DNA of 14,667 nt from a virus (lineage: Monodnaviria > Loebvirae > Hofneiviricota > Faserviricetes > Tubulavirales > Inoviridae): the IMG/VR virus record IMGVR_UViG_2609459846_000001. One strand, written 5' to 3'. A program made the position numbers and the translations under genes. The notes under the pieces are model-generated. The model was given only the letters and a program-made list of their open reading frames with translations, was not told where the DNA came from and did no database searches. Numbering within the stretch: the first letter of the stretch is position 1; each line of letters starts with the position of its first letter. Shown here one piece after another: positions 1-13,213 of this stretch.

Positions 1-3155
<3,155 letters not shown>

Positions 3156-3185
3156 CTGAATTTTTAACATTGAGGAGTCTGATTT

Positions 3186-3611
3186 ATGAATCAAATTTAC
3201 GACAGTTTTCCGTTTCCTTCCCCTGAAGGTTTTACCGCAGGTATGACAATGGCGGGATATTTTATTCACGCCACTGTCATAAATGATGAGGAGTTAAAAC
3301 CCACGGGTTCTCATTATAACCCTGAGGCCAAACCCAAATATGCCATTGTTATTGCCTATCCGTATGAGGACCGAAAATTAAAAGTCCGCCGTGAGGAGCA
3401 TGAGCGCTTTTCCTGTACTGAGGAGGATTTTAAATTTTTTAATTCATGTCCTGATTTGCAGGGCAAACCTGTTTATCTCACGGTGGATGTTAACTCATGG
3501 TCGACAGGCTCTGAACGTCATGGTGTCTGGTATCGTTTTATTTCCGGCTCCATGAAACGTTTTGACGGTCAGCCGCTGGGTGCACTGCCCGCTGGTAAAG
3601 ATAAGAATTAA
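3186..3611 (+). CDS. Hypothetical protein; putative ssDNA-binding protein by position (gV-like)
   Basis: 141-aa ORF with a GAGGAG ribosome-binding site 8 nt upstream, lying between the rep and coat genes where filamentous phages encode their ssDNA-binding protein. The assignment is positional only. Confidence 0.4.
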   Translation: MNQIYDSFPFPSPEGFTAGMTMAGYFIHATVINDEELKPTGSHYNPEAKPKYAIVIAYPYEDRKLKVRREEHERFSCTEEDFKFFNSCPDLQGKPVYLTVDVNSWSTGSERHGVWYRFISGSMKRFDGQPLGALPAGKDKN

Positions 3612-3616
3612 GTTTC

Positions 3617-3790
3617 ATGTCTGTTAATTCGGATTCGGTTTCCACGCAAATTAATGCTATTTGCGTGGGGATACCTGATGTGTCGGGGGTTGATTCCTCG
3701 GCGTTTTTAACGGGATTTTCACTGCCAGTATTTTGTTTTTTTCTTGGCATGATTATTTCCACAATTTGGAGTTTAATAAGGAGACTTTAA
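3617..3790 (+). CDS. Small hydrophobic protein, putative minor coat protein (g7p/g9p-like); not in the supplied ORF track
   Basis: 57 codons, translated by hand as MSVNSDSVSTQINAICVGIPDVSGVDSSAFLTGFSLPVFCFFLGMIISTIWSLIRRL. The C-terminal half is a predicted transmembrane helix followed by basic residues. It starts 5 nt after the previous stop and ends 2 nt before the major coat gene. An in-frame GTG at 3680 is an alternative start. Confidence 0.4.
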   Translation: MSVNSDSVSTQINAICVGIPDVSGVDSSAFLTGFSLPVFCFFLGMIISTIWSLIRRL

Positions 3791-3792
3791 TT

Positions 3793-4041
3793 ATGTTTGC
3801 AAAAATGACCAATCTTTTTAAGGGTGTTAATAAGAAAGTTGCAGCCTTATCTTTTTCCGCTGCTTCTGCTCTTGCTGTATCTCCGTCTTTTGCTGGTACA
3901 GTCGATTTTTCATCATTGACTAACAGCATTGATATGTCTTCTGTTTCTGCTGTTATTCTTTCTATCGGTGTTGCAGGAGTTACAGTTTATCTGACTTTTG
4001 CTGGCGTTCGTAAAGTATGGGGAGCCCTCAGAAGTATCTGA
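3793..4041 (+). CDS. Major coat protein (g8p-like) precursor
   Basis: 82 aa from the ATG at 3793, with AAGGAG 9 nt upstream. Signal peptide MFAKMTNLFKGVNKKVAALSFSAASALAVSPSFA, then a ~48-aa mature peptide with a hydrophobic core (VSAVILSIGVAGVTVYLTFAGV) and a basic C-terminus (RKVWGALRSI). A strong terminator follows. Confidence 0.7.
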   Translation: MFAKMTNLFKGVNKKVAALSFSAASALAVSPSFAGTVDFSSLTNSIDMSSVSAVILSIGVAGVTVYLTFAGVRKVWGALRSI

Positions 4042-4059
4042 GTTGTTTTTTATGAGGAA

Positions 4060-4083
4060 GGGCGGATATTCCGCCCTTTTTTT
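4060..4083 (+). terminator. Rho-independent terminator after the major coat gene
   Basis: GGGCGGA-tat-TCCGCCC forms a 7-bp GC-rich stem, followed directly by seven T residues (4077-4083). Confidence 0.65.
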
Positions 4084-4175
4084 GGATATTTATGTTTGAT
4101 TTTATTTTTATGATGTTTGGCTCCCTTTGTGGGTTATGTTGCGTCATTGGGTTTAAATCTAATTTGTGAGGTTTT

Positions 4176-4346
4176 GTGTCTACTCAAGAATTTAAAGTTA
4201 AATTGCCGAAATACACTATCGAGCAGATAGAAAGAATTATTTACAATAAAAATACAACCATTGAAGAATATGTTGTTTCAGTTATTCTTGAAAAAGCCGA
4301 TCAGGATTTCCGTCGAATTGTAAAACCATTTAGTTTTTACTGGTGA
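4176..4346 (+). CDS. Small hypothetical protein (56 aa, GTG start); not in the supplied ORF track
   Basis: Hand translation: [60 protein letters not shown] lies 4 nt upstream of the GTG. The stop (4344-4346) is 4 nt before the g3p start, which suggests translational coupling. Hydrophilic and charged. Confidence 0.3.
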
Positions 4347-4350
4347 TGAA

Positions 4351-5928
<1,578 letters not shown>

Positions 5929-5942
5929 TAATCAGGTGGTGA

Positions 5943-6233
<291 letters not shown>

Positions 6234-6244
6234 GAGGGTGATTT

Positions 6245-8559
<2,315 letters not shown>

Positions 8560-8819
8560 TGCCGCAACGCGGCATGTAAGGCGGCATGATGATGTTTCAT
8601 ATGATGCAGCTGCCTGACCGCCGAAGCCAGGGAGAGATTACAGAGCAGCAGGAGACAGCGCAACGCGCCGCCTGCCAGACCGCCTTTAAACAGGCAGTTA
8701 GCGAGACGAACGGCACGAGACGTGAGTCGTACAGGTGTTGATGTGATTAGTTGATGAAATTGATGATGACTTACAGCGATGCTTAGTTATCCGCCATCTT
8801 AAGTTCAATATGAATCATA

Positions 8820-8887
8820 GCCCGCCGGAACGGCAGTTGCCCCCGCCCGCAGGGGCGAGGACGGGAGCAACTGCCGTTCCGGCGGGC
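8820..8887. repeat. Perfect 21-bp inverted repeat with a 26-nt spacer (GC-rich hairpin) in the intergenic region after the secretin gene
   Basis: The left arm GCCCGCCGGAACGGCAGTTGC (8820-8840) is the exact reverse complement of the right arm (8867-8887). The spacer has its own short nested stem (CGCCC/GGGCG). No T-tract follows. Confidence 0.85.
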
Positions 8888-9016
8888 AATGATGCTATAT
8901 ACTCTTTAATGATGGATGTAACGTAATATTCTCTTTCCTATTCTGACATTATACACAGTACAAAAACTCATAACAAAGCACGAATGATAGCAAGCTTGTT
9001 TTTGTTATTTTTTTAA

Positions 9017-9784
<768 letters not shown>

Positions 9785-9867
9785 ATAATTACACACGTAA
9801 TTATTGCATTGCAAACCATTACCTTATAAGGGGGTAACTTAGTGTAGGCTCTTGTTCCCCCTCTAAT

Positions 9868-9922
<55 letters not shown>

Positions 9923-10263
9923 AACGCCTGATATGTCATCGCGGCAAAACGCGTCCATTGAATATAGCCAATATTTAAACCACCCGATCCAGCCCCAACA
10001 TGCCGCGAGCCTAAAAAAAACAGAGCAGCACCTTCCCCAAAAGGCGAGCCCCTGTAAGTGTGATATTTGCTATCTGTAAAAGACTAAAATCGGCAAAACT
10101 GATGATCTTTTCACGTAGACAAATAGTTATCTACACAACGTCAATAAGGGCATATTCCTCAAAGATAATGTCCATTTCTGCCGACACACTCATATTCAGA
10201 TTGCCCCACTCCCTGGGGCTTAAATCTCTTACTATTCACCGTTGCAGGCGTTTCAAATGCGCA

Positions 10264-12656: not shown

Positions 12657-13201
12657 GCCTGATGCGCTACGCTTATCAGGCCTACAATTCTCGCGCCACT
12701 CGTAGGCCGGATAAGGCGTTCACGCCGCATCCGGCAATGGTGACAAATGCCTGATGCGCTACGCTTATCAGGCCTACAGATTCTCGCGCCACTCGTAGGC
12801 CGGATAAGGCGTCCACGCCGCATCCGGCAGTGGTGGCAAATGCCTGATGCGCTACGCTTATCAGGCCTACAGATTCTTGCGCCATTCGTAGGCCGGATAA
12901 GGCGTTCACGCCACATCCGGCAATGGTGACAAATGCCTGATGCGCTACGCTTATCAGGCCTACAGATTCTTGCGCCATTCGTAGGCCGGATAAGGCGTTC
13001 ACGCCACATCCGGCAATGGTGACAAATGCCTGATGCGCTACGCTTATCAGGCCTACAGATTCTTGCGCCATTCGTAGGCCGGATAAGGCGTTCACGCCAC
13101 ATCCGGCAATGGTGACAAATGCCTGATGCGCTACGCTTATCAGGCCTACAGATTCTTGCGCCATTCGTAGGCCGGATAAGGCGTTCACGCCGCATCCGGC
13201 A
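12657..13201. repeat. REP/BIME array: six tandem ~93-bp units, each with two oppositely oriented REP palindromes
   Basis: Units begin at 12657, 12749, 12842, 12935, 13028 and 13121. Each contains GCCTGATGCGCTACGCTTATCAGGCCTACA and GTAGGCCGGATAAGGCGTTCACGCCGCATCCGGCA, the classic E. coli REP consensus types. The array sits between the DUF1116 gene and the carbamate-kinase-like gene. Confidence 0.9.
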
Positions 13202-13213
13202 TGAACATGTAGG

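Follow-up and report, generated by a model that had tools for sequence, protein, structure and literature searches.

Filamentous phages of the Ff group carry a packaging signal of 78 nt, an imperfectly paired hairpin (hairpin [A]) that directly follows gene IV and precedes the minus-strand origin, and the strand that enters their virions is the coding-sense strand. To our knowledge, such signals have been experimentally defined for a few Ff-type phages only and are unknown for many chromosomal inoviruses of pathogens; we likewise know of plasmid spread via filamentous phage so far only for pDolos in Shewanella. In this case, a rolling-circle plasmid is packaged by an inovirus, and the authors proposed that gaining a short packaging signal would suffice (bioRxiv 10.1101/2023.11.28.569023). 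Here, we analyzed a 14,667-nt stretch of the Escherichia coli chromosome (IMG/VR record IMGVR_UViG_2609459846_000001, in the following "the window") with an integrated inovirus, whose intergenic region contains a GC-rich hairpin downstream of the secretin (pIV-like) gene. In this hairpin, the intergenic region of the inovirus harbors a cis element that is both conserved and strand-specific; elements of its kind are known, but the sequence family is new. From comparative sequence evidence, we favor, with a probability of roughly 0.55, that it could act as packaging (morphogenetic) signal, and that small plasmids and a satellite prophage would carry it for export by the phage.

Structure and conservation of the hairpin

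A preliminary description of this DNA had reported perfect 21-bp arms at 8820–8887, and both position and description proved correct: the plus-strand arm at 8820–8840 (GCCCGCCGGAACGGCAGTTGC) and the minus strand at 8867–8887 form an exact 21-nt inverted repeat, which was reproduced in none of 200 shuffled sequences, in line with the earlier claim that it is unlikely to arise by chance. Extension with a repeat finder gave 35-nt arms (8814–8848 and 8859–8893) of 91% complementarity around a 10-nt spacer. Folded as single-stranded DNA (ssDNA), the region 8805–8900 reaches –45.4 kcal/mol compared to –17.8 ± 2.5 kcal/mol for shuffled sequences (z = –10.9; 0/200 equally stable). The hairpin lies 260 nt 3' of the secretin stop codon at 8559, on the coding-sense strand and outside any gene, so that its placement downstream of the secretin gene and in the main noncoding region of the phage module, i.e., the main intergenic region of the inovirus, was confirmed as well.

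A search of 5426 complete E. coli genomes recovered the exact hairpin with its flanks in 13, as a single copy in each and always in this prophage, which dispels the concern, raised along with the first description, of a generic chromosomal repeat. A sensitive search for diverged relatives extended the family to 43 genomes, with 69 chromosomal and 17 plasmid places, and in PLSDB it was found in 7 of 72,556 plasmids, all from Escherichia, while none of the 50,697 deposited phages searched contained it. Each family member whose context was examined belonged to a phage, satellite or small plasmid, or was a fragment residing on a large one. Additional variants were drawn from plasmids and from pattern scans of IMG/VR and metagenomes. 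The metagenome scan with an 18-base apex pattern returned 120 stretches, about 16 of which are true family members; most of the 120 were judged to be chance matches in GC-rich coding DNA, e.g., to an acyl-CoA-synthetase-like motif, and were discarded. A scan of GTDB with a pIV profile gave only relatives of at most 45% identity (apart from one short contig), none of them with the apex motif, and the nearest deposited phages, inoviruses from oral or saliva samples with about 40% pIV identity, possess AT-rich hairpins after pIV that are not homologous and therefore uninformative.

Comparison with related inoviruses, as proposed at the outset, showed that the hairpin is common to them, with an invariant apex and compensatory changes in the stem. 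The near-invariant core of the family consists of the apex plus the inner 11 bp of the stem (CCCGCCCGCAGG..CGAGGACGGGAGC) and reads ACG.CAG..GC.CCCGCCCGCAGG..CGAGGACGGGAGC..CTGCCGT. Around this core, type A, the form of the window lineage, has the perfect 21-bp stem with a 5-bp extension, and type B' (L083) has an 18-bp stem with two C.C mismatches and four compensatory changes relative to type A. Types B and C, found in most other phages and plasmids, keep both of these mismatches within an inner stem of 11 bp, their outer arms being largely mismatched. In type D (L223, a small E. coli plasmid), both mismatches are retained and the three intervening pairs are changed from CAG/CTG to CGC/GCG; in addition, the apex helix has lost a C from one side and a G from the other, a paired deletion that preserves it. 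Stem pair 4/65 occurs as four pair types (CG, GC, AU, UA). Among ten representative variants, seven stem pairs are changed on both sides, a number not reached by slid controls (at most three) or by any of 500 shuffles. That the apex stays invariant and stem changes are compensatory in diverged lineages therefore argues for selection on the hairpin structure.

Replicons that carry the hairpin

The hairpin is found in inoviruses with different replication and integration modules. Besides the window phage, a second inovirus (L215) combines a GPA-type replication initiator (Rep) with an IS110-family recombinase; its genes are only 66–72% identical to those of the window, compared to 87% for the hairpin unit. 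Four further inoviruses (L083, L087, L155, and L159) belong to a dif-integrating type with a Rep_trans-type Rep, and prophages like L083 were found in 14 further genomes, in tandem and adjoining hipA in the dif region. L083 shares the window segment 3611–8765 at 97–98% identity and lacks the IS110 gene as well as the gene for a PLD-family protein that follows the hairpin in the window. Its homology ends at 8765; about 230 nt further on, past an inverted pair of dif-like sites, the hairpin resumes at 80% identity. Such pairs, arranged around a short hairpin (L083 11920–12020; L227 8450–8540 and 8630–8720; L221 1510–1600), represent forked ssDNA attP sites for XerCD in the style of CTX phage and are located between element 1, the conserved block described below, and the hairpin in the dif-integrating relatives. 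Another inovirus (L226) has a Rep_trans-type Rep together with IS110; here, element 1 is separated from the hairpin by the PLD gene, and the hairpin homologue is located approximately 100–150 nt from the right end.

A 3.66-kb element in strain cM8a (L227; NZ_CM176589.1, 229–12050) is present in four tandem copies in the dif region. [quoted passage not shown] The DNA it has in common with the window phage is limited to element 1 (83%) and the hairpin, and its appearance is that of a satellite of E. coli inoviruses comparable to RS1 and TLC.

Small circular plasmids of 2.0–2.8 kb, relatives of the "phasyl" (Arp) replicons, form the third group of carriers. Their initiators are either Arp/phasyl-like and thus G2P/GPA-related (L089), of the "protein rep" kind (L091) or Rep_trans-like with RepL (L090). 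A cassette of 590 nt, comprising the hairpin, an ORF of 75 aa (ORF75) and an f1-like origin, is common to the three backbones; ORF75 was assigned to no Pfam or PHROG family and had no homologue in the phages studied here. In total, 12 small plasmids with the hairpin occur in 11 strains, 7 of which also harbor a hairpin prophage, against a baseline of 32 such genomes in 5426; AST85, 100117 and 700481 are strains in which the prophage is accompanied by plasmids of 2012 or 2751 bp.

A 150-nt fragment of the hairpin unit was also found beside IS3 on seven large plasmids of about 90–170 kb. In one of them, p14EC033c, it is located at L092 5950–6099, 155 nt from IS3 and upstream of sodC; with neither a phage nor a Rep gene nearby, it is probably a remnant. 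Finally, a phage of the E24377A type (L221 1840–1940) has a degenerate unit, in which the right half (CGAGGAGCGGAGCGCCTGC) is kept and the left half replaced, so that no hairpin can form.

These degenerate and fragmented copies bear on the question whether the palindrome could be selfish or accidental, that is, a mobile palindromic insertion or a product of replication slippage without function for the phage. The homologous flanks of E24377A-type phages, which lack the left half of the hairpin, the copies beside IS3, and the "perfected" look of the window form, as though templated from one arm, would all fit such an origin. However, there is one copy per replicon unit and no chromosomal dispersal, the pattern of invariant apex and compensatory change indicates selection, and the 3.66-kb satellite has kept the hairpin having shed all other phage DNA with the exception of element 1. 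We therefore consider a functionless palindrome very improbable.

An action as RNA seems just as poorly supported by the contexts described above. For a terminator or 3'-end stabilizer of the morphogenesis genes, the position downstream of their long operon would be fitting, exonucleases acting from the 3' end would be stopped by a stable hairpin in the RNA, and RNA structure would explain the covariation of the stem equally well; regulation of the PLD gene would be a further role. Yet, as stated in the preliminary description, the hairpin is not followed by a T-tract and is no simple terminator: neither strand shows a T-run that could give a U-tract, and 8400–9950 contains no terminator-like site. 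In an Rfam scan of the whole window, its only match was MIR161, a microRNA family, far below threshold and taken as chance. Moreover, the neighbors always differ (the hairpin follows attP in L083 and PLD in L226, and lies upstream of ORF75 in the plasmids), and the orientation follows the Rep strand and no particular transcript. Since the window and L226 have the PLD gene on opposite sides of the hairpin, a regulation of this gene by the hairpin was rejected, and we regard a role at the RNA level as very unlikely altogether.

In all replicons examined, hairpin and rolling-circle Rep gene share one strand. The differing Reps and differing neighbors imply that its partner is no particular Rep, i.e., that it is not a plus-strand origin, and no neighboring gene. 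Among the functions encoded by the phages themselves, the phage carriers have only the structural and morphogenesis genes in common. Consequently, the hairpin is partnered either by a host factor or by the morphogenesis machinery of the phage.

Candidate minus-strand origins next to the hairpin

Directly after the secretin stop codon, the phages share a second conserved block, which we termed element 1. A small ORF within it (8586–8741) was ruled out as a gene, and the block is regarded as non-coding because its homologues carry frameshifting indels. The first hairpin of element 1 covaries (GCCGC/GCGGC to GTCC/GGAC), a GGCGG/CCGCC pairing covaries too, and a block GACAGCGCAACGCGCC..CCTGC is invariant. 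Element 1 is conserved at 70–94% in all relatives and more strongly than the phage genes; in a phage with much more diverged morphogenesis genes, it still reaches about 84%, and it is also retained in the E24377A-type dif phage, whose secretin DNA can barely be aligned.

The first part of element 1 (8559–8631, 74 nt) is 79.7% identical to about 2000 loci of IncFII plasmids. In the one plasmid inspected, 400–700 nt separate the match from the oriR DnaA box, its strand is the one that would template leftward leading-strand synthesis, and the IncFII sequence runs on into CCGGCGTAAGCCGG-TACTG, which resembles stem-loop I and CTACTG of the annotated complementary-strand origin of phage G4. This position is presumably that reported for the primase-dependent "G site" of R1 (Masai and Arai, 1989). 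Its non-coding nature, its conservation, and the homology to the IncFII site with the G4-origin-like continuation would be expected of a host-directed priming signal, and element 1 is read as the minus-strand origin of the phage, a role that it probably fulfills.

All 12 small-plasmid loci contain instead a homologue of f1 nt 5625–5751 (114–140 nt, 73–78% identity), in the same orientation as Rep and hairpin. Within the f1 intergenic region, this segment corresponds to the minus-origin hairpins B and C; the f1 nick site was located at 5781, just downstream of it. Scoring of the three elements in 25 loci revealed a complementary pattern. All complete phage and satellite loci with the hairpin have element 1 and no f1-like minus origin, and all 12 small-plasmid loci have the f1-like minus origin and the hairpin but no element 1. 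The minimal phasyl plasmid L224 (1464 bp) has the f1-like origin only, and the E24377A phage (L221) has element 1 with neither an f1-like origin nor an intact hairpin. As candidate origins, element 1 and its f1-type counterpart thus replace one another. With a separate candidate minus origin in every carrier, the hairpin is therefore an additional shared element.

This distribution also bears on the main alternative, namely that the hairpin itself is a host-directed minus-strand origin (single-strand origin, sso), the second one per replicon, which moved as an sso cassette. On the displaced plus strand, the hairpin would remain free of SSB and RNA polymerase, primase or PriA would prime there. 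Typical of sso cassettes, the hairpin occurs in rolling-circle replicons of at least four Rep families and always on the Rep-sense strand; the conservation of its apex hints at a host protein that recognizes a specific sequence, the family has stayed at 85–95% while phage genes diverge to 66–72%, and in types B and C the two conserved mismatches flank CTG, the preferred start site of primase. However, the hairpin is nowhere the sole candidate for a conversion signal, since each carrier already holds element 1 or the f1-like B and C hairpins, and L224 does without it; an sso function would require redundancy in plasmids of 2 kb. The CTG is present in types A–C, with full pairing in the window form, and type D has GCG in its place; neither a –35/–10-like motif nor an AAGCGG (n'-site) motif was seen when reading the sequence. 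The change in type D also weakened a G4-type primase site as a specific candidate, as did the fact that no significant alignment with G4 oric was obtained. The narrow distribution in PLSDB and the strong association with prophages would be unexpected for a host-directed signal. Overall, an sso appears rather unlikely to us, although it deserves more weight than the RNA-level and selfish explanations.

A putative packaging signal

The preliminary description had proposed the class of packaging signals and replication origins for the hairpin, and it indeed behaves as a conserved cis element of this class. Traits of a packaging signal are found in its stability, its location on the coding-sense strand and its intergenic position after the assembly genes. 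Furthermore, it is carried by replicons that lack morphogenesis genes, namely the satellite and the 12 small-plasmid loci. Additional support comes from its covarying structure, its independence of Rep type, neighboring genes and recombination sites, the morphogenesis genes as the common denominator of the phage carriers, the separate candidate minus origins, the co-occurrence of hairpin plasmids with hairpin prophages, and the precedent of pDolos. We infer that its partner is the morphogenesis machinery, and that the satellite and the plasmids depend on a helper phage. By analogy with the Ff phages, the packaged strand would be the plus strand of the window. For the satellite, element 1 and the hairpin would correspond to exactly the two cis functions that a helper-dependent satellite needs, i.e., double-strand conversion and packaging.

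In the proposed course of events, the plus strand would be displaced by rolling-circle replication and subsequently coated with the phage ssDNA-binding protein, from which the GC-rich hairpin, remaining duplex, would stick out. It could then be recognized by the membrane assembly machinery encoded at 3611–8559 (pI/Zot, the small tip proteins and the secretin channel), and this recognition would fix the end where extrusion begins. Other circular ssDNA with a hairpin in the same orientation could be packaged in trans, with the small rolling-circle plasmids and the 3.66-kb satellite as candidates. A further-reaching and more tentative view, which we hold to be somewhat less probable than its opposite, is that a portable packaging-signal cassette turned unrelated rolling-circle replicons of E. 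coli into natural phagemids or satellites that are exported in inovirus virions; candidate recipients would be the phasyl-like plasmids, the Rep_trans-like/RepL plasmids and the dif-integrated satellite.

Several observations weigh against a packaging signal. Regarding the structure, only the 11-bp inner stem (with its two mismatches) and the apex pair well in types B and C, whose folding energy is no better than that of shuffled sequences; because most members of the family are thus not unusually stable, the perfect 21-bp stem of the window is a lineage-specific elaboration. The E24377A-type relative has only the degenerate version without a hairpin, and the f1 intergenic region gave no BLAST match to the window, L083 or L215. 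Two single-strand origins are possible on one rolling-circle plasmid, and the "G site" label of the IncFII homologue, which helps to assign the origin function to element 1, relies on position and a short G4-like motif. Finally, the co-occurrence of plasmids and prophages (hypergeometric p = 4e-14) was calculated ignoring clonal relatedness, and two of the seven pairings were deduced from adjacent accession numbers.

Nevertheless, the comparative evidence yields a discrete and easily testable candidate for a packaging signal, along with an adjacent candidate minus-strand origin, and it suggests the existence of natural phagemids in E. coli. If the hairpin is a packaging signal, filamentous phage would mobilize a satellite prophage and small cryptic rolling-circle plasmids of diarrhoeagenic E. 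coli, and the hairpin would provide a cassette for the construction of phagemids of non-Ff inoviruses. If it is a second single-strand origin instead, it would represent an ordinary, previously undescribed sso family. What makes it interesting is a testable link that connects the inoviruses of E. coli with cryptic rolling-circle plasmids and with a satellite prophage.

Integration and gene content of the window phage

The same element occupies two chromosomal sites, yahK/yahJ (L001, identical to the window) and hcxB/ybiB (L002). Alignment of both occupied sites to the matching empty sites (L003 and L004) placed the element ends at a CTG core at window positions 1–3 and 9900–9902. The targets, TTACTCCTG^ATTAGC at yahK and TAACTCCTG^TTTATG at hcxB, are located just 5' of the Shine-Dalgarno sequence of each gene. 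The phage is inserted 9–10 nt 5' of the start codons of yahK and hcxB, and the promoters are pushed 9.9 kb away (L001 3180–3225).

The mapping of the ends contradicts two further proposals of the preliminary description, according to which the hairpin might be the site recognized by the IS110-type recombinase or mark the boundary of the element. Both had some appeal, as the hairpin lies within an element bearing an IS110-family gene and its homologue in L226 is close to the right end. However, the junctions map to the CTG core, and the hairpin, located 1013 nt inside the element as counted from the right junction, is therefore neither boundary nor crossover site. The guide-like segments of the left end correspond to the flanks of target and donor, and members of the hairpin family occur in dif-integrating phages, the satellite and plasmids without an IS110 gene. 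A role as recombination site or boundary can thus be dismissed with near certainty.

When the left end was compared with the target and donor sequences, matches of at least 6 nt were found to span the crossover flanks and the element ends (Table 1). The guide-like segments fit the natural target at hcxB perfectly and that at yahK with one mismatch per side. This arrangement is as expected of an IS110 bridge RNA like that of IS621, and points to a putatively bridge-RNA-guided integration of a filamentous phage.

Table 1. Features of the window (positions refer to the 14,667-nt stretch).
Feature	Position	Strand	Remarks
Integrated inovirus, 9.9 kb	1–9902	+	CTG core at both ends
Left-end non-coding region with bridge-RNA-like guides	4–183	+	about 180 nt
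Guide-like TAACTCC	65–71		identical to left target
Guide-like TAAACAG	88–94		reverse complement of core and right target
Guide-like CACACCAG	161–168		reverse complement of core and left-end start
IS110-family (DEDD) recombinase gene	184–1149	+	
GPA-type rolling-circle replication initiator (Rep) gene	1152–3155	+	
Gene for 141-aa protein	3186–3611		
Structural/morphogenesis module and element 1	3611–8765	+	coat, pIII-like, DUF2523/pVI, Zot/pI, secretin
Coat gene	3793–4041		
pIII-like gene	4351–5928		
DUF2523 (pVI-like) gene	5946–6233		
Zot (pI-like) gene	6245–7303		
Secretin (pIV-like) gene	7300–8559	+	upstream of element 1 and hairpin
Element 1, conserved non-coding block	8559–8770	+	candidate minus-strand origin; directly after secretin stop
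Full hairpin	8814–8893	+	outer 5-bp stem ATCAT/ATGAT, A.A mismatch, perfect 21-bp stem, structured 26-nt apex
Hairpin apex	8841–8866	+	CCCCGCCCGCAGGGGCGAGGACGGGA; itself partly paired
PLD-family cargo gene	9086–9784	+	in AT-rich DNA between hairpin and right end

The PLD gene belongs to PHROG 9329 (function unknown), lies in DNA of 26–35% GC and has its counterpart in L226 at 8226–8921; at the same position, L215 carries a different cargo gene of 581 aa. Within the pIII-like gene, a long (Gly-Thr/Gly-Ser)n repeat (5392–5620) varies in length among prophage copies, resulting in genes of 1578, 1614, and 1668 nt. To the right of the prophage, the chromosome continues with yahJ, yahI, yahG and a BIME/naRNA4 array. 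This array (12705–13206, between yahI and yahG) comprises five tandem 93-nt units that match Rfam naRNA4 and a sixth, partial match below threshold; the units create long spurious ORFs on both strands.

Comparison with known systems

Repetitive extragenic palindromes such as REP units are about 35 nt in length and occur in hundreds of copies. Like REP and BIME elements, the hairpin is a GC-rich intergenic palindrome; unlike them, it is single-copy, unrelated in sequence and confined to phage, satellite and plasmid DNA. With IS110/IS621, the element as a whole shares the IS110-family recombinase, the CT(G) core at both ends and the guide-like matches in the left end, whereas the hairpin, in contrast to the sites of these systems, lies 1 kb from the junction and is also found in elements without an IS110 gene.

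Small replicons without morphogenesis genes beside an inovirus are likewise found for pDolos and Dolos in Shewanella and for RS1 and TLC with CTX-type phages in Vibrio. In the searched passages of the pDolos preprint, no packaging signal common to plasmid and phage is identified (bioRxiv 10.1101/2023.11.28.569023). Here, the small replicons share a discrete hairpin with the inovirus, and the packaging of the E. coli plasmids and satellite is proposed.

The f1 minus origin, G4 oric, the G site of R1/IncFII and sso cassettes resemble the hairpin as strand-specific, folded ssDNA elements with an orientation fixed by Rep and with exchange as cassettes. What sets the hairpin apart from single-strand origins is that its carriers already have a candidate for one, f1-like in the plasmids and G-site-like in the form of element 1 in the phages, and a comparison with the f1 and G4 origins revealed no significant similarity.

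In comparison to the packaging signal of the Ff phages f1, M13, and fd, the hairpin differs in sequence, to which it shows no similarity, and in its stem, which is perfect in the window and imperfect in f1 as well as in most relatives of the hairpin. It is also placed differently, as it follows gene IV at a distance of 260 nt with element 1 in between, whereas the signal of f1 precedes the minus origin. Common to both are a GC-rich hairpin of about 70–80 nt, the location on the packaged strand (as presumed here), and the intergenic position after gene IV and near the minus origin. Moreover, the signal of the Ff phages can be borrowed by other replicons, the phagemids, which finds its parallel in the plasmids and the satellite that carry the hairpin.

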